Assembly (NCBI GenBank): GCA_002099625.1
Contig: GCA_002099625.1_4857.1
Length of the DNA: 64,000 bases
Direction: 5' to 3' (one strand)
DNA from: Escherichia coli
Lineage (GTDB): Bacteria; Pseudomonadota; Gammaproteobacteria; Enterobacterales; Enterobacteriaceae
The notes beneath the pieces were generated by a model. That model had not been told where the DNA came from, did not search any database, and saw only the letters and a program-made list of their open reading frames with translations. A program made the position numbers and the translations under genes. Below are positions 32,301 through 47,029 of this stretch, one piece after another. Each line of letters opens with the position of its first letter. The first letter of the stretch is position 1.

Positions 32301-32341
32301 CGTAAAAAAGGAAATCCCCTCTTACCCGAAGGTAAGAGGGA
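32301..32341 (-). terminator. Intrinsic terminator (minus strand)
   Basis: Stem CCCCTCTTACC / GGTAAGAGGG with CGAA loop; T-run on the minus strand. Confidence 0.55.
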
Positions 32342-32345
32342 GTTT

Positions 32346-32825
32346 TCATTGCACAAGGCAACTACTTTTGTGCCGTTCGTAGGCATGATTAAAAGACTCT
32401 CTGTCTTCGCGATAGCTGCGAATGAGAGACTTAATCTGTCGTGACAAATCACGACTAATGTCCTGAGGGCTACGAGAACCAGGGTCGAGATATATCCCGG
32501 AGGGTATATCATGAAGAGTGGGGCGAATAAACTCTTCACAAAGCGGTGCGGCCATCGGGGTGCGCCACCCCTTAGCTTCTGCGTAATTGTTCAACGACTT
32601 AGCGTACAGATAAACGTAATAAGCATAAGCGTTCACATCCGCAACAAACATTTTCCCTGCCAGCTTTTTCGCCTCAGGACTGTTCCCACCAGCATAAACT
32701 GGTGGGTGTTCTAAAGGACGAAAAGGCCAATCTCCGGTTGAGGAGTAATCTGGGTCTACGTGACGGATGGCTCCAGGGCATCCTGTCAACAATAGCACCA
32801 GTATCGCCACCAAAAATAACTTCAT
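32346..32825 (-). CDS. Lipoprotein (159 aa); outer-membrane spanin candidate
   Basis: Signal peptide with lipobox LLTG-C (MKLFLVAILVLLLTGC); directly downstream of a membrane protein with coiled-coil character. Confidence 0.5.
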   Translation of the reverse strand: MKLFLVAILVLLLTGCPGAIRHVDPDYSSTGDWPFRPLEHPPVYAGGNSPEAKKLAGKMFVADVNAYAYYVYLYAKSLNNYAEAKGWRTPMAAPLCEEFIRPTLHDIPSGIYLDPGSRSPQDISRDLSRQIKSLIRSYREDRESFNHAYERHKSSCLVQ

Positions 32826-32834
32826 GTATGCTCC

Positions 32835-33344
32835 TCATGGATTATTAAGCGTACTGATAATCTCCTGTCGGAAATCATTTGCCTCCTGCGACCCTACCGG
32901 GCGAGAAGCGGCCTGGTATTTCTTGGCAGGTGGGCTAGACGGATTTAACGGTGCCGGCGGTGTTACCGGCTTGAGTTCTACAGGCGGAACCGCGGCCTCA
33001 GTGCCTGTTCCTGTTGGAGATTTGGTACCATCATATGGCGGTCGAGAACCCAGGCACGTGAAGAGACGATCGTACAACTTATTGTTCTCCACTTCGCCAT
33101 GATCGGACTTCTCTTTTAGCTCCTTATAGGATATCTCCAGATACTGAGTACGCGATTGAACGCTAACCAGTGTGTGGTATTGAACAATGTAGGCGTATGA
33201 GACAAATGCAGAGAACGCGATCAGTGCCACTATCACTAGTGTCACTATTTTCCCGGCTCGTGTTACTTTCTCCCCCTCGCCCGGTTTAAATGCTTCCCAC
33301 AGCATTTGTAAGAATGGAAGCAGTTTGAAAACTGATGCTATCAT
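32835..33344 (-). CDS. Membrane protein with predicted coiled-coil and Pro-rich C-terminus; inner-membrane spanin candidate
   Basis: One TM helix (IVTLVIVALIAFSAFVSYAYIV), then a heptad-like segment and a proline-rich tail; 9-nt gap to the lipoprotein gene. Confidence 0.4.
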   Translation of the reverse strand: MIASVFKLLPFLQMLWEAFKPGEGEKVTRAGKIVTLVIVALIAFSAFVSYAYIVQYHTLVSVQSRTQYLEISYKELKEKSDHGEVENNKLYDRLFTCLGSRPPYDGTKSPTGTGTEAAVPPVELKPVTPPAPLNPSSPPAKKYQAASRPVGSQEANDFRQEIISTLNNP

Positions 33345-33368
33345 GCTCACCTCGGAGAGTTTTTAATT

Positions 33369-34748
33369 ATGTATGATTTACAAGGCTTTATTCAAATAGC
33401 GGCTCTGATTGATAATGGCCCTGGCAACACCGCTCCGGTAGGTGAGTTGTCTGAGCTGTCATATTCGTTCGCTAAAAGCAAGCAGTATTTTACTAAAGAA
33501 AATCTGCAGGTGGAACTGGTTGCTTTTACTTCTAAACGTGACGAGTTGCCTATTAAGACCCCGGCCGTCTTTAGCGACCACGTTCTTACTGTTTCCCAAT
33601 GGATCTACCAACAGTCTATCCTGGGCAACTTAAGAAACGACGAAGTTGAATTCCAGCGTTTGCTGTTGGGGCAATTTAATAGTGTCATCAGCGGTGTTCA
33701 GTCTGGCGCGATGATTCAGACTAACAGTAACTGGTTCCCACGTTGGGTCAGTTGGAAACTTGAAACCACAGCAGATAAAGTCGAAGACCCATCTGATGTG
33801 AATAACCAGATTATTCTCTGGTTTGCTGATGAAGATTTCAATCAGGACTATACCGGATTTGAAATTGAAGTCCAAATGCCGATATTACCGGTTGATACTT
33901 TCTTGGCTGTGAAATCTGTAGTCGAAAAGGCAATGGAAGGGTTCAACCTTCCGGATCACCATAATAAGATTAACGAATTAGCTGACGGTTATCCGTACAC
34001 TAGCCTGATTACTAACATCTATACTTGGCACGACCAGGAAGACTTTGATTCCACCTTACCGATACCGATGTCGGCTATCATCTACGGACGCGCGGGTCGT
34101 AACCCGAGCAGGATTAAACAAGCGTTGCGTGATTACATTTTGGCAAACTCCAGTTTTACTGTGGCGTTGGGTGTCAAGGTGTTCCCAGAAATCTTTACGA
34201 CCACCAAGTTCACAATTGTTCCGGGTTGGTCAATTCGTGGGATTCCAAATGAGGAAGACGTTGCGGCATTATACTCGCCGATTCTCCCATATGATTTCTG
34301 GGTCAAAGCAATCTCCCGATTTGGGGAGTGGACTGTTCAAACCATTACGGAAAAAAATAGTGGAGCAATCTCAACTCCAACTACCGATGTAACGGATTTA
34401 CCGTCCATCTATAAATCACTAAACGCTGTAGTTATCGCAGGCCCTGAAAACGATTCACGCAAAACGACCCTGCACGATACGATTCCCGACTACGCATTAA
34501 TCGGCACTAACAATGCAGATATTGCGAGAATGTCGAAGAAAACCACCGAGTGGCTGGACCTGTTCTTCCAGGCGTTAATCGCAGCGGAAGAGTATCACCC
34601 ACATTCCACCCCGCTGGATATCGTGAAGCTCGTAGACGACGTTGATCCTAATGTTTACTTCTACGTCTTCGAATTCGATAACGTGGAGTATCGTGTCTTG
34701 GCCCGCAAAGCTGTTTGGGATGTCCCTGCGGCAGAGCCAGAAGCCTAA
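33369..34748 (+). CDS. Hypothetical protein (459 aa), possibly structural
   Basis: Plus-strand island ORF; divergent from the spanin-like gene with an 18-24 bp gap. Confidence 0.6.
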   Translation: MYDLQGFIQIAALIDNGPGNTAPVGELSELSYSFAKSKQYFTKENLQVELVAFTSKRDELPIKTPAVFSDHVLTVSQWIYQQSILGNLRNDEVEFQRLLLGQFNSVISGVQSGAMIQTNSNWFPRWVSWKLETTADKVEDPSDVNNQIILWFADEDFNQDYTGFEIEVQMPILPVDTFLAVKSVVEKAMEGFNLPDHHNKINELADGYPYTSLITNIYTWHDQEDFDSTLPIPMSAIIYGRAGRNPSRIKQALRDYILANSSFTVALGVKVFPEIFTTTKFTIVPGWSIRGIPNEEDVAALYSPILPYDFWVKAISRFGEWTVQTITEKNSGAISTPTTDVTDLPSIYKSLNAVVIAGPENDSRKTTLHDTIPDYALIGTNNADIARMSKKTTEWLDLFFQALIAAEEYHPHSTPLDIVKLVDDVDPNVYFYVFEFDNVEYRVLARKAVWDVPAAEPEA

Positions 34749-34758
34749 GGAGGGTTAA

Positions 34759-35382
34759 ATGGCACAACTGTTGCCTAACACGCCTCAGGTTAACCTTGAG
34801 GGGTTGTTCAAGGTTAAGGCACCTTATACGTTGCCGGATAAAGTGATTTATCGTGTTGACGCGGTACAGAACTTTCCGAAACTCCAACGTAACAACATTG
34901 ACGTTTATAACAAGTATTATAAACCTGTCGGCCTAACTCGTGACGACTATATCAGCGACGCTAATGTCGAAGCCTCGATTGTAACATTAAAGTCGAGGGA
35001 CGGTCAAGTCTACGAGTTGCCTGATACGTACATTGAGACGTATCCTGGACTGAACGGGTTAAATTATAGACGCAATGTGGTGGTTATTGACCTGGCATTA
35101 ATACCCGAATACGTCGATGTCACACTGCTAACGAACGACCTGAAAAGCATCTTAGAACGCGGTTTAGGAATCGATGCACGTGTGGACATCACATCGATGG
35201 ATTACGAAGGGACGGTGACGGAAGAAGAACACTTGCAAATGGAAGCGGTGCGTAAAGCCAAAATCCGTGAGCAGATTCCTCTGACAGAACAAGTTGCAAC
35301 ACTCACTAAGCAGAATCAAGAACTGCAGGCGTTGAATGATGCGATGTTGAAAATCCTGAAAGATAATGGGTTAACAAATTAA
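34759..35382 (+). CDS. Hypothetical protein (207 aa)
   Basis: ORF with AGGAGGG RBS; C-terminal coiled-coil-like segment; followed by a bidirectional terminator. Confidence 0.55.
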   Translation: MAQLLPNTPQVNLEGLFKVKAPYTLPDKVIYRVDAVQNFPKLQRNNIDVYNKYYKPVGLTRDDYISDANVEASIVTLKSRDGQVYELPDTYIETYPGLNGLNYRRNVVVIDLALIPEYVDVTLLTNDLKSILERGLGIDARVDITSMDYEGTVTEEEHLQMEAVRKAKIREQIPLTEQVATLTKQNQELQALNDAMLKILKDNGLTN

Positions 35383-35436
35383 AGAAAAAAAGAACTACCT
35401 ACTCCCAAGGGAGTAGGTAGGCTTTTATTTTTTTAT
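35381..35436. terminator. Bidirectional intrinsic terminator
   Basis: A-run, stem CTACCTACTCCC / GGGAGTAGGTAG (35395..35420), long T-run. Confidence 0.6.
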
Positions 35437-35440
35437 CGCA

Positions 35441-36598
35441 TTACTTGCCGATGATATCGCGGACCATTGCTTTGATTGTGGCAGCGGTACGTTTCTTTTT
35501 CGGCAGCTTGCGGATTTCTGCGTACAGTTTATCCAGGTTCAGCGTTTTCTGTACCTGCGCAACAATCTGCATTTGCTCTTCGTCGATCTTCACTTCGACG
35601 GTTTGTTCCTGCATTTTGCCCAGTTCCTGAATCACACTGGAAACCGATACCGGATAAGCTGTTGATTTTGGACGTTCGATACCGAGGGTGACAAAGATTT
35701 CGTCGTCAATAAACACATTTTCGATATCAACCAAGTTTTCCAGAATGATTTCATCGTGGCCTTCATCTTCCGACGCATTCGGGTATGGACGTTTGTAGGT
35801 GTAATCCCACACGTCATAACCGAGTTTATCTGCGAGTTGTACGAAACCTTCCCAGGTTACTTCGCCGGGGTTGATAGTCTGACCACGGAAACCGGGGTTG
35901 GCCGTAAAGACTTTCACCCAGTCGATGTTCGCGATGTTACGGCACTCTTCCAGCGGCGCGTAACGATCTCCCACTTCGTCATTGTCAGTCTCTTCAACAT
36001 GCTCTGCTTCACAACGCTCGAAAGTAACTGAGTGTGGTTTACCGTCACCGAAGATAACGGAGGCAGCACGCCAGTCTTCGATAGTCCACTGGACATGAGT
36101 CAATTCAATGTAACAATGCCCAACCTTAGCACGGCCCTGTGGGGCACTTACTGGTTTAATCAACTCACCTGGTTCGAAGAAGAATCCGTCAGAATGTGCA
36201 ATGGCATACCAGACACCATCAACACCTTCAACGAGAATAGACCAGTTATAAGGCGCGTGGCAATTTTGGAAAGCTACGCCCAGCATACTTCCCCAACGGT
36301 CATCTGGCGAATATTTCAGTGGCGGCAGGTTATCAAACTGAAGAGTTTGAGAAGAAAGGCACAACTTATTACGCAGGTGCGGCAGCGGCAGATAAGCCTC
36401 CACATTGTTATCGACCAGCGCATTGTAAAGATCCGGGTTGATAACACCGGTGCCAGTGACGTGTTGTGCAATCAGAGCTTCTGAATATGCACGAATACCC
36501 TCGTAGCTAAGCACATACGCACGGTCACGTACTACACGAGCCATATCTTCGATTACGGAAATTGGAAATTGCATGTTAATAGTCCTTATAAAAGTCAA
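35441..36598 (-). CDS. Hypothetical protein (385 aa)
   Basis: ORF after the bidirectional terminator. Confidence 0.55.
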   Translation of the reverse strand: MTFIRTINMQFPISVIEDMARVVRDRAYVLSYEGIRAYSEALIAQHVTGTGVINPDLYNALVDNNVEAYLPLPHLRNKLCLSSQTLQFDNLPPLKYSPDDRWGSMLGVAFQNCHAPYNWSILVEGVDGVWYAIAHSDGFFFEPGELIKPVSAPQGRAKVGHCYIELTHVQWTIEDWRAASVIFGDGKPHSVTFERCEAEHVEETDNDEVGDRYAPLEECRNIANIDWVKVFTANPGFRGQTINPGEVTWEGFVQLADKLGYDVWDYTYKRPYPNASEDEGHDEIILENLVDIENVFIDDEIFVTLGIERPKSTAYPVSVSSVIQELGKMQEQTVEVKIDEEQMQIVAQVQKTLNLDKLYAEIRKLPKKKRTAATIKAMVRDIIGK

Positions 36599-36634
36599 TG
36601 GTATTTTCAGATGATTAGTTACTGCTGTAAAAAA

Positions 36635-36901
36635 CTAGTTACGGTCGGAATTAAAGACGTGCCAGGTACTACGCCAGCGAAAGAATCGGGTTATGAAACC
36701 ACGTATGTGGTAGCCTGAGAACAACATCCAGATGGTAAGAAAGAGTTGCGCCCATGGAGACGTGAGTTCCATCAGATGCGCGACGATCGCACCGATCACC
36801 AACATTACCGTAGAGAATAACAAACTATACATCATCGGAATGTTGTGGCTATAGCGTTTCTCCATCCAGTAGAGAAAATTTATTAAACGTTTCACGAACA
36901 C
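36635..36901 (-). CDS. Small membrane protein (88 aa, two predicted TM helices); holin-like candidate
   Basis: Hydrophobic segments SLLFSTVMLVIGAIVAHL and LFLTIWMLFSGYHI. Confidence 0.4.
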   Translation of the reverse strand: MFVKRLINFLYWMEKRYSHNIPMMYSLLFSTVMLVIGAIVAHLMELTSPWAQLFLTIWMLFSGYHIRGFITRFFRWRSTWHVFNSDRN

Positions 36902-36910
36902 ACACCCAAG

Positions 36911-36947
36911 AATTAAATAAAAGGTGGTCAGACCCGAAGGTCTGACC
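36911..36947 (-). terminator. Intrinsic terminator (minus strand)
   Basis: Stem GGTCAGACC / GGTCTGACC with CGAA loop; T-rich run on the minus strand. Confidence 0.5.
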
Positions 36948-36952
36948 GTTAA

Positions 36953-37546
36953 TTACGCTTCGGCCTCAAAGAACGGCTGGTTCGGTACCACTGCATATTC
37001 GAGCACGAAAAGATGTTCTGGGGCATCTTCTGCTCGCCACAGTTTGTGGCACGTTGCCAGTTTTTCCAGGATGGTCAACCAGCTGAGCTGGCAGAAAGCA
37101 CGATCGCCGAAGAACAGTTTCTGCAGTGCAATCGACACATCCATATACGCCTGTTTGAAGTCGAGTTCTTTATCGTAACCCGCCGACTGTCGCCACGTCA
37201 GCACGAAGCCTGCTTCGGTTTCGTTAATTGCTGGACGTAAACCACAAATCCACATCAGCGCCAGATTAACGTTCCAGTCGAATTCGATACCTTCGTCTTC
37301 GTCATCACCAAACGCCGCGTTTAACGCGTCGTAGAAACCGTGGTTCTCTGCGAACCATTCGCCGTACTCAACGTAGACAGGTGCTTCGACAGCTTCCCCA
37401 TCGGCTTCACCGATAGGACGCTCAACGTAGTTCGGATTGGTTTGAACGTGTTCCGCACCCGCGCGAATCAGTTCGTAAACGTCTTTGGCGGTGATTTGTG
37501 CGGCTGTTTTAAGACCTGGATACCAGGGGCGTGTTACGAGTGTCAA
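36953..37546 (-). CDS. Hypothetical protein (197 aa)
   Basis: ORF; 4-nt overlap with the upstream SLT gene. Confidence 0.5.
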   Translation of the reverse strand: MTLVTRPWYPGLKTAAQITAKDVYELIRAGAEHVQTNPNYVERPIGEADGEAVEAPVYVEYGEWFAENHGFYDALNAAFGDDEDEGIEFDWNVNLALMWICGLRPAINETEAGFVLTWRQSAGYDKELDFKQAYMDVSIALQKLFFGDRAFCQLSWLTILEKLATCHKLWRAEDAPEHLFVLEYAVVPNQPFFEAEA

Positions 37547-38265
37547 AGCAATGCTCCTTTCATGATAGTGTTATTTGCCAGTAATGTACCGGCCGCAGGT
37601 GATATTTTGGTGTACAGCGTATCCCAGATTTTCTGAAGTTCGGCGACGCGTTGGTCGTGGTCTTCCTTCGCAAAAGCAAGCTGACGTGTTTCAGCTTTCG
37701 GTGGTGTCATTTTCGCACCGTAGAATGCTGCGTCTTTTCGGTAGCTGGCCATCCAGCGTTTCCCGACCGGTGATTTCTTTTTAATCATCGCAACAGCAGC
37801 ACCCTCACCGAAGCGGTAGCCTAAAGCGATTTCGGCTGTGCTCGGCTTGCGTTTGAGTTGTTTTGTCAGATGATCCTCGATGTGTTTCATGTAAACGGCA
37901 GCAAGCTGTACAGCATACTTCGGTTTATTAAGGTCCGCATTCTTTGGGATGTTAAGTTGTTTCCCATACAGACGTATCATGGAGCGTTTAGTGCCTGTCG
38001 TCATTTGGACAACACTACTAGCACTGCTCGATTTATTCTTACCCACGTTTTTATTAAAACGGGATTCACGATAAATGGTGGTCGCGAGCATCCCGGCATG
38101 TACGCCTTGTTTTCGAGATGCGGTGACGATGAGAGGTTTAATCTCATTGAACTGGTCCTGGATAAGGACGAATTCTTTTTGGTGTTTGTTACTGGTGGTC
38201 TGGTAAGAAGCGTTGCTGTTGAACGTAGTCATTGCTACCAGAAGAAATAAAATGGTGCGAAACAT
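37543..38265 (-). CDS. Secreted SLT-domain lytic transglycosylase (240 aa); endolysin candidate
   Basis: N-terminal signal peptide (MFRTILFLLVAMTTFNSNA) and SLT motifs TIYRESRFN ... VVQMTTGT. Confidence 0.6.
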   Translation of the reverse strand: MFRTILFLLVAMTTFNSNASYQTTSNKHQKEFVLIQDQFNEIKPLIVTASRKQGVHAGMLATTIYRESRFNKNVGKNKSSSASSVVQMTTGTKRSMIRLYGKQLNIPKNADLNKPKYAVQLAAVYMKHIEDHLTKQLKRKPSTAEIALGYRFGEGAAVAMIKKKSPVGKRWMASYRKDAAFYGAKMTPPKAETRQLAFAKEDHDQRVAELQKIWDTLYTKISPAAGTLLANNTIMKGALL

Positions 38266-38355: not shown

Positions 38356-38367
38356 TGATAATATCTA
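38356..38367. promoter_or_regulatory. Near-palindromic motif TGATAATATCTA (site 3)
   Basis: Between the macro-domain gene and the secreted SLT gene, about 90 nt upstream of the latter. Confidence 0.35.
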
Positions 38368-38865
38368 TTTGAAACTATTTGGGATGATTTTCTCTGCTTC
38401 CTTTAGCAGTGTGTCCGGTAAATAGAATCGATAAGTCTGCTCCGTGTGTTGTAGTCGTTTCTGTAAGTGTATAAAGATTTCCAATCGCTCATGGTAACGT
38501 AACCAACCGTTAGCCATCCCTAGGGGCGGTATCGCAATCCCTCCTTCTAAGTCTTCCCCTAGTCGCGCCAGCGCATCAATGCCGGACGTGACATAGTAAA
38601 TCTGCGATTTATAGCGAAAATGGGTTTTAGTAGGAAGGAGTATTACCCCTTCCTCAGGATAACAATAGACCTCACCGATAACGATTTGCTCTTTACGACA
38701 TTTCTGGCGATAGTCATTATAAAGCGATGGGAAGCGTTCTCGGCACGCCAAAGCAATGCCCCTTCCCATTGCACCAACACAGTTAACTGTAACGACCTTG
38801 AAGCGCTCAGGCGCGTTAAACAAGTCGTGGGAGATAACGGCCTCGTCGATCAGTTCGAGTGACAT
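38365..38865 (-). CDS. Macro-domain protein, TARG1/DarG-like subclass (166 aa)
   Basis: VTVNCVGAMGRGIALACRERFP matches the TARG1-type C..MGAGIA..F...F motif (recalled from memory); downstream IAIPPLGMANGWLRY fits the second conserved block. Confidence 0.6.
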   Translation of the reverse strand: MSLELIDEAVISHDLFNAPERFKVVTVNCVGAMGRGIALACRERFPSLYNDYRQKCRKEQIVIGEVYCYPEEGVILLPTKTHFRYKSQIYYVTSGIDALARLGEDLEGGIAIPPLGMANGWLRYHERLEIFIHLQKRLQHTEQTYRFYLPDTLLKEAEKIIPNSFK

Positions 38866-40719: not shown

Positions 40720-40827
40720 TTAAAACCAACCTTGCGTCAATGCAAGGATTGCGCCTAGGGCGTATGCGCCTGCTCCTAGTACCAGGCTACAGATGATACA
40801 CCCAACCCACTTCACTAAAATAACCAT
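40720..40827 (-). CDS. Micro-protein P5 (35 aa), single TM helix
   Basis: MVILVKWVGCIICSLVLGAGAYALGAILALTQGWF; its ATG overlaps the 3-prime end of P4. Confidence 0.4.
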   Translation of the reverse strand: MVILVKWVGCIICSLVLGAGAYALGAILALTQGWF

Positions 40828-40946
40828 GATGCCAGAAATGCTCCGATTGCACAGATGATAATCGTAATGCCAAGGTCTGTCCAGGTGGTACCATCATACG
40901 CACCTGTTGCAATCATGGCTGCGTTGACACTATTCACGACTGTCAT
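40815..40946 (-). CDS. Micro-protein P4 (43 aa), single TM helix
   Basis: MTVVNSVNAAMIATGAYDGTTWTDLGITIIICAIGAFLASWLF; its start overlaps the P3 stop region. Confidence 0.4.
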   Translation of the reverse strand: MTVVNSVNAAMIATGAYDGTTWTDLGITIIICAIGAFLASWLF

Positions 40947-41133
40947 AAGCCGGGTCCCTTAAACGCGGGGGCTTGCTCCACAGATTACCGAAGTAAACCC
41001 CTTCTAAGAACACCAAAACAACTAAGCCCCAGAAGGCAGGCGTGGCACGAGACAAGAAAATGCCCATCAGCACTACAGTGTGCATTACCACAACTGCCCA
41101 AAACTTTAAACGACCCGGTTTACGTGTTGCCAT
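40930..41133 (-). CDS. Small membrane protein P3 (about 67 aa), two hydrophobic segments
   Basis: MATRKPGRLKFWAVVVMHTVVLMGIFL...GLVVLVFLEGVYFG; start re-picked at the first ATG, overlapping the P2 3-prime end. Confidence 0.4.
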   Translation of the reverse strand: MATRKPGRLKFWAVVVMHTVVLMGIFLSRATPAFWGLVVLVFLEGVYFGNLWSKPPRLRDPAYDSRE

Positions 41134-41224
41134 GGAATGCCCATCCTTTCGTGCGGATAATCCAACCCCAGGCACCACGAATCAACCACAGTGCGATACC
41201 GGTTAGTACGATACCTTCAATCAT
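41120..41224 (-). CDS. Micro-protein P2 (34 aa), single TM helix
   Basis: MIEGIVLTGIALWLIRGAWGWIIRTKGWAFHGNT; its ATG overlaps the P1 stop as ATGA. Confidence 0.4.
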   Translation of the reverse strand: MIEGIVLTGIALWLIRGAWGWIIRTKGWAFHGNT

Positions 41225-41412
41225 GTCCGTTCCCCTATATCTCGCCACTCACAACGCGTGTCAAAAAGACGTTCTTTAAGAGCAGAGGCTAAATACACAA
41301 CCGCAGCGATAACCACCACGGTTGCACAAAAGGAGAGGTACAGCACCATCACAACAAACTGAAGGAACTGAAAACCCCACCAAGCCCATAAGCGCCAACC
41401 TTTATGATGCAT
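41221..41412 (-). CDS. Small membrane protein P1 (63 aa)
   Basis: Hydrophobic core FVVMVLYLSFCATVVVIAAVVYLASAL; start overlaps the stop region of the SbcC-like gene. Confidence 0.45.
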   Translation of the reverse strand: MHHKGWRLWAWWGFQFLQFVVMVLYLSFCATVVVIAAVVYLASALKERLFDTRCEWRDIGERT

Positions 41413-45319: not shown

Positions 45320-45703
45320 TTACTGGTCGAGCGCTACTGAACCACGCACCACCCCTTGCTGTTCAATAACCAGGAGGCGTTGTTTGGTTTTCGTATTGTA
45401 AGCGAGCGACGCGCGAAGCGTCGGGTCGCACGTTATTGTCTCTACTGGCACAATCTCTTGTGCCTTTGAGTTCAACAGAAAGTAGTAACCTGCCGGACAA
45501 GTTTCCTCGCCCTTTGCGTGGACTAGGATGTACTCGTCGTGCCGGCTGACTTCTTCACATCTACCATCGTCACCAGTACAGACTTCGAACGAAGGCGGAT
45601 TGTACTGATACGGTGTGCCTGGTAGTAAATCTTCTACGCTGGTTGTAGCTGAAGCAGAAGCGGTAAAGAACACCGCCACGATAATACCCATAAATCCACG
45701 CAT
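45320..45703 (-). CDS. Secreted Cys-containing small protein (127 aa)
   Basis: N-terminal signal peptide MRGFMGIIVAVFFTASASA; several Cys residues. Confidence 0.5.
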   Translation of the reverse strand: MRGFMGIIVAVFFTASASATTSVEDLLPGTPYQYNPPSFEVCTGDDGRCEEVSRHDEYILVHAKGEETCPAGYYFLLNSKAQEIVPVETITCDPTLRASLAYNTKTKQRLLVIEQQGVVRGSVALDQ

Positions 45704-45716
45704 GTTGTTTCCTTAC

Positions 45717-46127
45717 TTAAAAGTCGAGTTTATTGATACCTACGTTTTTCTTAATCGTAGGGTCGTACATGATAACCGTCAGGGCATTATCACCTGGGTC
45801 GCGAGTAAACTCAGCAACGGCTTCACCACTGCAGGCTTGGTTATCATTGTAGTTCATGGATTCGGCTTGCCCGGTTGCCATGTTAATAACCCCGTATTCA
45901 GGGTCGCCACATGCGACACCGCCCATCGTTTTCACTAACAGGTAACGGTTGTTATCGGACATCGCAACGATCTGGCAGCTACCGCCTTGTACGTCAGAGT
46001 TCTGGCACCAGAACGGCCCGCCGTATTCGTGATCGTTAACAACTTTTGGTAACTCGATACTTCCAGCGCGAGCGAAGAAACTAATGGCCAGAGTAGCAAG
46101 TAAAACTGGTAATAAAAAATGTTTCAT
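45717..46127 (-). CDS. Secreted Cys-containing small protein (136 aa), paralog of 46150..46641
   Basis: Signal peptide MKHFLLPVLLATLAISFFARA; shares PFWC...C...V...CG with the next gene. Confidence 0.55.
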   Translation of the reverse strand: MKHFLLPVLLATLAISFFARAGSIELPKVVNDHEYGGPFWCQNSDVQGGSCQIVAMSDNNRYLLVKTMGGVACGDPEYGVINMATGQAESMNYNDNQACSGEAVAEFTRDPGDNALTVIMYDPTIKKNVGINKLDF

Positions 46128-46149
46128 AATAGCACCTCAATTTTTTGAG

Positions 46150-46641
46150 TTATTCTGAATAGTCGATTGTTTTGATGGTTTCCATACCGTAGTACATAGC
46201 GATGGAGGCCAGAGTTTTGGTATCCGGTCGCTGTACAAAACCGGCCCTGAAATCTTTGCTGCAAATTTTCTCCACTGATAGTTCATCACGATTAGGGATA
46301 AGCCATAACGCGTCACCATTGTGACGGTCGACTGCACCCCACCAACCACCTGGGCAATCTTTATCGCCAGGACGGTGTACGATAGCGACACGACCGTTGA
46401 AGGATATGTCAACTACACGACACTGTTTCTTAAGCAGCTTACGCGCATTGCACCAGAACGGCTTATCATTAAGATTGATGGTGCGGGTATATGCTGGAAT
46501 GCTGCCGTTAATACTGCCCTGGAACCCGCTGAATTCGTCAGCGTGTGCCTTAGAAATCCGTAGCCCAACAACAACTGCCATCAACAGCACAGTAAAAAGC
46601 ACCACTTTGGCCAAGTGGCGATTAACGTTATTGCATTTCAT
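46150..46641 (-). CDS. Secreted Cys-containing small protein (about 163 aa)
   Basis: Start re-picked at MKCNN; signal/anchor segment VVLFTVLLMAVVVGL; PFWCNA...C...CPGGWWG. Confidence 0.5.
   Translation of the reverse strand: MKCNNVNRHLAKVVLFTVLLMAVVVGLRISKAHADEFSGFQGSINGSIPAYTRTINLNDKPFWCNARKLLKKQCRVVDISFNGRVAIVHRPGDKDCPGGWWGAVDRHNGDALWLIPNRDELSVEKICSKDFRAGFVQRPDTKTLASIAMYYGMETIKTIDYSE
46159..46168 (-). promoter_or_regulatory. Promoter-like motif AATCGACTAT (minus-strand sense)
   Basis: 32-41 nt upstream of the ATG of secreted-protein gene 45717..46127. Confidence 0.4.
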
Positions 46642-47029
46642 TTTTAATATCTCCACGATTAAGGGTGATGCGACCGACGAGCACATCGTTGTGATAAAAG
46701 CTCACAGCAACCATATTCGGTAATTCCAGTGGTGACACACTGACCGAGGTGACTTTTGGTTGATTGCACGATATGTCAATCAACCGCTGATACATTTTCA
46801 ATTTCTTATCAGCGATAACCAGCCCTGTGCAGTTCTTACCGTCCGTCAGTCTGTAGATTTGTAACTGTTCGACCTCACGCATCAGTTCTGGTTTTTCATT
46901 CGGCGCAATGCCATAATCCGAATCAGCTGATGTGTATTCAGTCACGTCTGGCTTATCGAAAGCATAAGTTGCTGCAATACCACATGCGGCCAGAACTACT
47001 ACTGCTTGTAAGAACTTCTTGATAGTCAT
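46628..47029 (-). CDS. Secreted small protein (133 aa)
   Basis: Signal peptide MTIKKFLQAVVVLAACGIAATYA; AATCGACTATA motif 11-20 nt upstream of the ATG. Confidence 0.5.
   Translation of the reverse strand: MTIKKFLQAVVVLAACGIAATYAFDKPDVTEYTSADSDYGIAPNEKPELMREVEQLQIYRLTDGKNCTGLVIADKKLKMYQRLIDISCNQPKVTSVSVSPLELPNMVAVSFYHNDVLVGRITLNRGDIKNEMQ

Follow-up and report, generated by a model that had tools for sequence, protein, structure and literature searches.

Genes gp198 to gp205 of an SPN3US-like jumbo phage lie between positions 32,346 and 38,265 of a 64,000-nucleotide stretch of Escherichia coli assembly GCA_002099625.1 (contig GCA_002099625.1_4857.1; the whole stretch is referred to here as the window). 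We read this region, with moderate confidence, as a conserved, interrupted lysis neighbourhood of an SPN3US-like chimallivirus, with three minus-strand transcription units within 6 kb. Its working parts would be a transglycosylase (gp198), a small membrane protein (gp200) and an inner-membrane protein with a lipoprotein partner (gp204/gp205). Most of this is known biology or a direct extension of known families. The new point is that phage phiKZ carries, beside a proven spanin, the same conserved module that is the sole spanin candidate in SPN3US-like phages.

By sequence, the window phage is an SPN3US-like Seoulvirus, that is, a phiKZ-like nucleus-forming chimallivirus. Over the 6.5-kb region, identity to the Salmonella SPFM jumbo phages is 99.2%, against 97.4% for the reference phage SPN3US, whose gene numbers are used here. 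The earlier note on this DNA, made from the letters alone, had picked out four open reading frames (ORFs) and had described their lysis functions as dispersed. All four were found on the minus strand with unchanged coordinates, and they are gp198, gp200, gp204 and gp205. What it observed is confirmed, and what it made of the observation is partly supported. In public records, gp198 is labelled "putative endolysin" or "transglycosylase" and gp203 a virion protein; the remaining genes from gp198 to gp205 are hypothetical. The features of the locus, in the direction of minus-strand transcription, are as follows.

37543..38265, minus strand: gp198, 240 aa, SLT lytic transglycosylase with a predicted Sec signal peptide, candidate lysis endolysin
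36953..37546, minus strand: gp199, conserved acidic cytoplasmic protein, TTGA overlap with gp198
36926..36947, minus strand: terminator-like hairpin directly after gp199, 9-bp stem, 6 GC pairs, T-rich tail
36635..36901, minus strand: gp200, 88-aa small membrane protein with class-II-holin-like topology
35441..36598, minus strand: gp201, 385-aa soluble protein downstream of gp200, PHROG 11818 (function unknown)
35395..35420, both strands: bidirectional terminator-like hairpin in the convergent gp201/gp202 gap, 11-bp stem, 6 GC pairs, a T-tail on each strand
33369..35382, plus strand: gp203 and gp202, virion (tail) genes that interrupt the neighbourhood on the opposite strand
32835..33344, minus strand: gp204, 169 aa, type-II inner-membrane protein, i-spanin-like
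32346..32825, minus strand: gp205, 159 aa, predicted outer-membrane lipoprotein, o-spanin-like
32316..32341, both strands: bidirectional terminator-like hairpin immediately after gp205 that bounds the gp204-gp205 unit, 11-bp stem with 6 GC pairs

Terminator-like sites were enriched (19 observed, compared with 7.7 +/- 3.1 in shuffles). The three strong hairpins sit exactly between genes: one follows gp199, one lies where gp201 and gp202 converge, and one follows gp205. They thus delimit three putative units, gp198-gp199, gp200-gp201 and gp204-gp205, divided by gp202/gp203. The lysis candidates are indeed non-contiguous, as gp199, gp201 and the plus-strand gp202/gp203 intervene, but the word dispersed overstates this. 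All of them fall within 6 kb, in three terminator-bounded units with two tail genes between, and the layout is conserved across Seoulvirus, Machinavirus, Derbicusvirus and a Vibrio phage. Machinavirus and Derbicusvirus keep the order macro domain, SLT, small genes, gp202/gp203, transmembrane protein, lipoprotein, exonuclease and RNase H. The order from the macro-domain and SLT genes through gp202/gp203 to the transmembrane protein, lipoprotein and nuclease was also found in the phages Machina, CR5 and Phobos and in the Vibrio phage. In Vibrio pVp-JHP1101, the SLT gene and the transmembrane/lipoprotein pair are parted by two tail genes only. The arrangement is a loosely clustered, interrupted neighbourhood, less compact than the five-gene cassette of phiKZ and far less scattered than the lysis genes of T4.

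The first gene of the first unit, gp198, is probably the lysis endolysin, judging from its sequence. It matches the Pfam SLT family with E=2.2e-6 (27.7 bits against a gathering cut-off of 21.3) and aligns to the catalytic domain of phiKZ gp144 (blastp 1.7e-12). Residue E67 aligns with the catalytic Glu of the gp144 ES motif, and the SSAxG motif is kept as well. The correspondence between gp198 and the phiKZ endolysin was listed independently by Thomas 2016. phiKZ gp144 is a biochemically characterised endolysin that lies inside a lysis cassette verified in 2026 (Manohar et al. 2026, PMC12894885), and it has no insertions in the phiKZ transposon-insertion sequencing (Tn-seq) tables. The homologous SLT protein of Serratia phage PCH45 is essential by Tn-seq. 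A signal-peptide SLT protein is present in every relative that we examined.

The N-terminus of gp198 is different from that of gp144. The approximately 80-residue N-terminal peptidoglycan-binding domain of gp144 has no counterpart in gp198, which instead begins with a Leu-rich signal peptide of approximately 20 aa ending in an AXA-like site. The same replacement was seen in all five homologues (window phage, Machina, CR5, Phobos and the Vibrio phage). In gp198, a hydrophobic core of approximately 12 residues, TILFLLVAMTTF, is followed by a cleavage-like site with S-N-A before the cut and S after it. Since a signal peptide stands in place of the peptidoglycan-binding domain, gp198 is predicted to be exported by Sec and cleaved. 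The type of signal (cleavable or signal-anchor-release, SAR) was judged by eye from the sequences. We rejected a SAR endolysin because the core is approximately 12 residues long rather than a Gly/Ala/Ser-rich stretch of approximately 18-20 residues, and the cores of the homologues are 12-15 residues, Leu-rich and followed by AXA-like sites. An SLT enzyme with a signal peptide, as proposed from the letters alone, is thus borne out: the Pfam match is above the cut-off, an export signal is present and the protein is an orthologue of a proven jumbo-phage endolysin. We infer that gp198 would leave the cytoplasm through Sec with a cleavable signal peptide, rather than wait in the cytoplasm for holes made by a holin. 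One point weighs against this role, which is that an endolysin with a cleaved signal would need some restraint on its activity before lysis.

gp199 is translationally coupled to gp198 through the TTGA overlap and would be its cytoplasmic partner. It accompanies the SLT gene in Machina, CR5 and Phobos, all of them enterobacterial relatives, and the 24 homologues found are all clade-restricted. Its AlphaFold2 (AF2) model has a predicted local distance difference test (pLDDT) value of 78.7. No blastp match to phiKZ gp143 was found, and a Foldseek search of this model against the BFVD viral models returned nothing from phiKZ. The search gave one significant match, the 157-aa viral protein R4II41, which is probably the CR5 member of the gp199 family, judged by length. 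Homology between gp199 and the phiKZ lysis regulator gp143 was rejected because there is neither a sequence nor a fold match; a positional analogy remains.

In the second unit, gp200 is a weak candidate for the holin, and we regard the assignment as doubtful. As a small hairpin membrane protein it may act as a membrane-depolarising holin, and the call follows from topology and position. It had been described earlier as a two-helix protein. The first helix is clear, with one segment (approximately residues 21-47) above the hydropathy threshold; the second (approximately 50-66) is plausible but weaker and sub-threshold. Both termini are basic (+3 at the N-terminus and +4 at the C-terminus). No PHROG or NCBIfam family was found for gp200, and the sole Pfam match, to DUF4231, is below threshold (E=3.6e-4, 21.4 bits compared with a cut-off of 24.7). 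No homologue of the phiKZ holin gp142 was detected here by blastp. Two further results weigh against a holin role. Its conservation ends at Seoulvirus, with no counterpart in CR5, Phobos or the Vibrio phage, and the terminator-like hairpin parts gp200 from the SLT-gp199 unit. Machina has two unrelated proteins with two transmembrane domains (TMDs) in place of gp200. The earlier description as holin-like therefore stands as far as small size and a plausible hairpin topology go, and it is weakened by the lack of conservation and of a family and by at least three small membrane-protein rivals approximately 3 kb away.

These rivals provide another possible explanation, namely that the holin is a different small membrane protein, encoded at 40815..40946, 40930..41178 or 41221..41412 of the window or elsewhere in the genome. 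We consider this quite possible, if somewhat short of an even call. The three consecutive transmembrane ORFs (43, 82 and 63 aa) lie on the minus strand approximately 3 kb upstream of the SLT gene and its macro-domain neighbour. CR5 and Phobos likewise have small transmembrane ORFs upstream of the macro-domain and SLT genes and none at the gp200 position, and gp200 itself has no family and lies behind a terminator. However, the three ORFs are not conserved between clades (there is no homology to the CR5 and Phobos counterparts) and match no holin family. gp200 is the membrane protein nearest to the SLT gene, and it has the size of a class II holin, a putative hairpin topology and a basic C-terminus. 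The ORFs at 40815..41412 are also candidates for an antiholin.

At the start of gp200 (36890..36901) there are two in-frame GTG codons two codons apart (GTG-TTC-GTG-AAA), both of them weak starts. By analogy, this dual GTG is reminiscent of the dual-start motifs of holin/antiholin genes.

The third unit encodes the spanin candidate. gp205 begins with MKLFLVAILVLLLTGC and has the lipobox LTGC (LLTGC) with the lipidated position at Cys16. The residue at +2 is Pro, so there is no Lol-avoidance Asp. A GAGGAG Shine-Dalgarno sequence lies 5 nt upstream of the gene. Across 41 family sequences, the lipobox Cys is near-invariant, and C96 and C156 are invariant. The family is small (39 cluster representatives among 1.84e9 proteins), and its members are "hypothetical" or unannotated in 73 of 73 homologue records. 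The AF2 model of gp205 (pLDDT 90.4) consists of a signal-peptide helix, an extended tether of approximately 35 residues and a hairpin of two 35-residue helices, with C96 on the loop between the helices and C156 at the end. A Foldseek search with this model returned family members and a weak tail of other chimallivirus lipoproteins; annotated o-spanins appeared at E>1 only, and there was no match in the PDB.

gp204, in its 169-aa form, has a single strong hydrophobic segment (approximately residues 30-56) by hydropathy. It is preceded by an amphipathic leader of approximately 30 residues with a conserved N-terminal helix and basic residues, and followed by 115 residues, in an N-in/C-out orientation. 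In the periplasmic part, a short helical stretch leads to a proline-rich spacer, with 13 Pro between residues 100 and 150, and the C-terminal helix is conserved. The earlier description of a membrane coiled-coil protein therefore fits only in part, as the periplasmic helix is short and leads into a proline-rich tail. A Cys-x(3-5)-PPYDG motif and the C-terminal helix are kept across Machina, CR5, Phobos and the Vibrio phage, and the conserved periplasmic Cys is C99 in the 171-aa numbering. The gp204 stop codon is 9 nt from the gp205 start on the same strand and overlaps the gp205 Shine-Dalgarno region.

The start of gp204 differs between our analysis and public records. The GenBank and RefSeq records of SPN3US use an internal Met that gives a 156-aa protein and cuts the conserved N-terminal amphipathic helix (window 33305..33350). 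The ATG at 33344, which gives 169 aa, is supported by a GAGG Shine-Dalgarno sequence, by the PHROG profile and by the homologues in CR5, Machina and the Vibrio phage.

It is plausible that gp204/gp205 is a functional spanin, and we hold this about as likely as not to be so. The pair has the architecture of a separated two-component spanin: a single-TMD, N-in/C-out inner-membrane spanin (i-spanin), an outer-membrane spanin (o-spanin) with a lipobox and no Asp at +2, encoded by the gene immediately downstream, and periplasmic Cys residues, which are a near-universal spanin feature in the census of Kongari et al. 2018 (PMC6139136). The same census calls CR5_183 (171 aa) and CR5_184 (148 aa) a separated i-/o-spanin and gives CR5_183 one coiled coil (66-99) and only approximately 30% helix. 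These are direct homologues of gp204 and gp205, by tblastn to CR5_184 and by the N-terminal, Cys-PPYDG and C-terminal motifs of CR5_183, and they share the gene order, a gap of approximately 10 nt, the genomic slot and the protein sizes. The CR5 call was bioinformatic only. Its authors gave gp141/141.1 as the phiKZ spanin and did not remark on the orthology of the CR5 pair to phiKZ gp156.1/gp156 (PMC6139136). The size of gp205, which the earlier note had thought unusually large for an o-spanin, is an unfounded worry: jumbo-phage o-spanins in the census are 120-167 aa (EL 149 and Ea35-70 167 aa, PMC6139136), and its CR5 homologue is among them.

Within the 240-kb SPN3US genome, gp204/gp205 was the only adjacent transmembrane and lipoprotein pair in two all-frame lipobox scans, the second of which was relaxed to accept the LNGC box of phiKZ. 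Apart from gp205, the scans turned up a lone lipoprotein (137623..138114) and a secreted-protein cluster, and nothing else. A hidden o-spanin of the phiKZ type, overlapped or embedded, was looked for in all frames and from all starts in both scans, and the search over 240 kb gave none. Taken together with a census of membrane proteins, the scans revealed no other i-spanin-like protein and no unimolecular-spanin candidate in the SPN3US genome. As modelled, the tethered helical hairpin of gp205 would face the terminal helix of gp204, which is compatible with a complex that spans the periplasm. The inner-membrane protein and the outer-membrane lipoprotein would together bridge the periplasm and, after the transglycosylase clears the peptidoglycan, would disrupt the outer membrane as a separated two-component spanin.

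Several findings weigh against a spanin role. The pair resembles no verified spanin in sequence, profile or fold; blastp and HMM comparison with phiKZ gp141/141.1 gave no similarity, and none of the curated models for spanins or holins of NCBIfam, Pfam and PHROGs matched. This lack of homology is uninformative, because spanin families are very diverse and most are singletons. In addition, the large size and high helix content of mature gp205 are atypical for an o-spanin. The main difficulty comes from phiKZ. The slot between phiKZ gp157 and the RNase H gene gp155 holds gp156.1 (96 aa, a single TMD) and gp156 (133 aa, lipobox LISGC). A hidden Markov model (HMM) of the gp205 family, searched against local databases of approximately 410-420 ORFs, matched gp156 with E=1.8e-8 (5-sequence profile) and 2.5e-10 (41-sequence profile), whereas the phiKZ o-spanin gp141.1 scored as noise with the same profiles (E=0.28 and 3.8e-3). 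Residues 68-131 are aligned; they lie in the C-terminal domain between the two invariant Cys residues, and Thomas 2016 independently lists gp205 as the counterpart of phiKZ ORF156. The verified spanin of phiKZ is a different pair, gp141/141.1, which complements lambda Rz/Rz1 (PMC12894885).

The gp205-family HMM also matched phiKZ gp165 (L006 19094..21586), an SMC-like homologue of SPN3US gp186, at residues 417-482 (E=2.3e-4, 410 ORFs). This match runs through a Y..D.N.Y..Y motif and is probably spurious.

The flanking gene supports the same correspondence. gp203 is a clear orthologue of phiKZ gp157 (blastp 3e-57), with orthologues in 288 phage records. A transmembrane protein followed by a lipoprotein lies between the divergent gp157/gp203 orthologue and RNase H in the window, CR5, Machina, Phobos, pVp-JHP1101, phiKZ, PhiPA3, Ralstonia phage RsoM3USA and Xanthomonas phage LucasX. 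Every chimallivirus lineage sampled has a transmembrane protein in the slot. A gp204-family HMM gave nothing significant against the slot transmembrane proteins of phiKZ, EL, PhiEaH1 and Deimos or against phiKZ gp141, and the orthology of gp204 to gp156.1 thus follows from synteny, architecture and a shared C-terminal helix only. By sequence and synteny, we take the gp204/gp205 pair to belong to an ancient chimallivirus envelope module that, in phiKZ at least, does not replace the canonical spanin.

The distribution of the module adds to the case against a spanin. phiKZ, PhiPA3 and others carry the slot pair plus a separate overlapped spanin. EL, PCH45, PhiEaH1, Miami, pAEv1810 and Deimos-Minion have the slot transmembrane protein only, with no adjoining lipoprotein, and in EL, PCH45 and Ea35-70 (a relative of Deimos-Minion) a census or annotated spanin is encoded elsewhere. 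In phiKZ, 201phi2-1, EL, OBP, Ea35-70 and PCH45, the spanins of the census or annotation are different pairs, mostly overlapped, at other places in the genome. Two possible identities between such spanins and the slot gene were rejected. The Tn-seq-essential "Rz spanin" of PCH45 is gp54, and the slot gene is gp68 by accession numbering; the census spanin of EL is gp111, and the slot gene is ORF170.

In the trimmed Tn-seq table of phiKZ, orf141 and orf141.1 have one 3-read insertion each, and orf156 and orf156.1 have none. Almost no insertions are tolerated in gp141/141.1, so gp156.1/156 is evidently no substitute for it, which is a further point against a spanin. The absence of insertions in orf156 and orf156.1 was not accepted as proof that they are essential, because both are co-transcribed with the essential orf155 (gp155) and with gp154, and polarity on orf155 confounds the signal. 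Polarity does yield false essentials nearby, as orf157 has no insertions yet is deletable.

Another possible explanation is therefore that gp204/gp205 is not a spanin but an ancient module of an inner-membrane protein and an outer-membrane lipoprotein that serves, for example, superinfection exclusion, the sensing of lysis timing or some other envelope step that is essential. Outer-membrane breaching in SPN3US-like phages would then depend on a different, unrecognised mechanism. We consider this possible but less probable than a spanin. It draws on the orthology of gp205 to gp156 (HMM, synteny beside gp157/gp203 and RNase H, and the listing by Thomas 2016), on the verified phiKZ spanin being another pair, and on the presence of the slot pair in PhiPA3, RsoM3USA and LucasX as well. 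The phiKZ pair is also co-transcribed with the replication-associated gp155/gp154 and not with lysis genes, orf156/orf156.1 lack insertions although gp141/141.1 is present, and gp205 has no fold or profile likeness to annotated o-spanins. On the other hand, the SPN3US genome offers no alternative spanin candidate, the pair broadly shows the architectural features used in the census, and its CR5 homologues were called spanins there. The Tn-seq signal is subject to the polarity described above, and missing homology says little in view of the diversity of spanin families. The location among nucleic-acid genes is not unusual either: the T4 spanin genes also lie amid genes for nucleic-acid enzymes and distant from the other lysis genes (Kongari Fig. 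1).

The label spanin for gp204/gp205 is thus not secure, since the phiKZ orthologues coexist with a different verified spanin. The earlier proposal of a spanin-like pair gains from the separated two-component architecture and the CR5 homologues in the census, and loses from the orthology to phiKZ gp156.1/gp156. Tentatively, the module could be one that has so far gone unrecognised and differs from the canonical spanin: either a second outer-membrane fusion system, alone in SPN3US-like phages and additional in phiKZ-like phages, or a complex with a different, possibly essential, envelope function.

The endolysin role of gp198 also has a competitor. The true holin-dependent endolysin could be a soluble protein with GH108 and PG_binding_3 domains encoded at SPN3US 135425..136042, approximately 40 kb away, with gp198 in an auxiliary periplasmic role. 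We think this unlikely. The protein matches Pfam GH108 with 2e-18 and PG_binding_3 with 3.8e-19, has no signal peptide and is absent from the virion proteome table. Its homologues occur in 672 phage records, with an endolysin label in several smaller phages, which weighs against gp198; in one listed GH108 case, Escherichia phage SaltyDalty, a holin also stands under the match. If freely secreted, a muralytic enzyme such as gp198 would also be hard to restrain until lysis. However, gp198 is the orthologue of the proven phiKZ endolysin, and the PCH45 SLT protein is essential. The GH108 gene lies amid tail-fibre and chaperone genes, with no membrane protein adjoining, and it is missing from the shared-gene table of SPN3US, PhiEaH2 and CR5, whereas the signal-peptide SLT gene is found throughout the relatives examined. 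We therefore keep gp198 as the probable lysis endolysin. The endolysin picture drawn earlier from the window is nevertheless incomplete, because a second endolysin-type gene exists elsewhere in the genome, and true dispersion of the lysis functions may come from this gene outside the window.

The GH108 gene is one of a small group in SPN3US (NC_027402 135425..138114). The others encode a DUF1353 protein, a weakly Peptidase_M15_3-like protein and the lone 163-aa lipoprotein (LLAGC), and they too are surrounded by genes for tail fibres and chaperones.

Finally, it is very improbable that the lysis-candidate proteins are virion components, such as a tail-associated lysin or structural membrane-interacting proteins: their genes flank two tail genes and gp198 also matches SLT domains within large virion proteins in PHROGs, but the mass-spectrometry table of the SPN3US virion, which lists gp202 and gp203, contains none of gp198-201, gp204, gp205 or the GH108 protein and led us to reject this reading, the virion-borne SLT domain sits in the 259-kDa gp239, and the signal peptide, lipobox and transmembrane anchors point to the host envelope. 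The earlier note had itself named a place in the virion as a result that would count against its proposal.

The best understood relative is the phiKZ cassette gp141/141.1/142/143/144 (PMC12894885). Like the window, it has a transglycosylase, an adjacent cytoplasmic protein, a small membrane protein and a pair of an inner-membrane protein and an outer-membrane lipoprotein. In contrast to the window, where three units are interrupted by tail genes and the spanin-like genes are separated, the phiKZ cassette has five contiguous, co-oriented genes and overlapped spanins. The parts differ as well. The candidate endolysin of the window carries a signal peptide and gp144 a peptidoglycan-binding domain. 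gp200, with 88 aa and two putative TMDs, does not resemble the class IIIb holin gp142, gp199 has no sequence or fold likeness to gp143, and gp204/205 is not homologous to gp141/141.1. The RefSeq entries for phiKZ gp142 and gp143 (L007 7216..8227) still read "virion structural protein", which is outdated in view of the experimentally defined holin and lysis regulator.

The closer match in phiKZ is gp156.1/gp156. It has the same slot position, is divergent from the gp157/gp203 orthologue and places the transmembrane protein first and the lipoprotein second. The lipoprotein has a homologous C-terminal domain with two conserved Cys residues, and gp156.1 has a similar C-terminal helix. At 96 and 133 aa, gp156.1 and gp156 are shorter than their window counterparts, and the former has no proline-rich spacer. 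Between the phiKZ pair and the RNase H operon there is no terminator, whereas the window has the terminator-like hairpin after gp205.

T4 and the systems with exported endolysins offer more distant likenesses. The T4 lysis genes (e, t, rI and pseT.3/pseT.2) are also scattered over the genome of a large myovirus, with a separated spanin pair beside nucleic-acid-processing genes. The T4 o-spanin has two conserved cysteines that are required for function (PMC6139136). There is no sequence relationship between T4 and the window, and the T4 endolysin is cytoplasmic and holin-dependent. Secreted or SAR endolysins with pinholins (phage 21, P1; Lys44 of fOg44) share with the window an N-terminal export signal and a small two-TMD protein nearby. 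With an exported endolysin, membrane depolarisation alone would suffice, and large holes would not be needed. SAR systems differ in having an uncleaved, Gly/Ala-rich anchor of 18-20 residues, whereas the approximately 12-residue core and AXA-like site of gp198 suggest a cleavable signal peptide.

Lysis by nucleus-forming jumbo phages was essentially unknown before the phiKZ cassette was dissected in 2026, and a 2026 review of jumbo-phage biology makes no mention of holins or spanins. The enterobacterial branch appears to solve lysis differently from phiKZ, with an endolysin that is predicted to be exported by Sec and no detectable homologue of the phiKZ-type spanin or holin. This raises the question of whether the gp156.1/gp156-type module is a spanin and, if so, why phiKZ has two. 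If the module has a different envelope function, SPN3US-like phages have no recognisable spanin and the CR5 call in the census is wrong. A practical use of these results is better annotation of therapeutic Salmonella and Erwinia jumbo phages.

The genes around the candidates are less informative about lysis. For gp201, no Pfam family was found; it is absent from CR5 and Phobos and partially conserved in Machina gp212. gp202 matches Pfam DUF7194, and am27 sup- particles lack both gp202 and gp203. In Machina, CR5 and Phobos, as in the window (38365..38865, minus strand), a gene for a macro-domain (Appr-1-p processing) protein lies immediately upstream of the SLT gene. The Vibrio phage has one small gene (135) between the two, and the linkage is otherwise conserved.

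Some SPFM assemblies (for example LR535906, LR535911 and LR535901) show the gp205 and gp199 homologues in 2-5 tblastn pieces or as aberrant protein fragments, which suggests frameshift sequencing errors in these records. Farther along the minus strand of the window, 45320..47026 (SPN3US 165783..167492) holds a cluster of small exported proteins, with a possible 133-aa lipoprotein (VLAAC) followed by Cys-rich signal-peptide proteins. SPN3US has four such ORFs, three of which were located in the window, with no adjoining type-II membrane partner. These proteins are possibly periplasmic host-interaction or exclusion factors.

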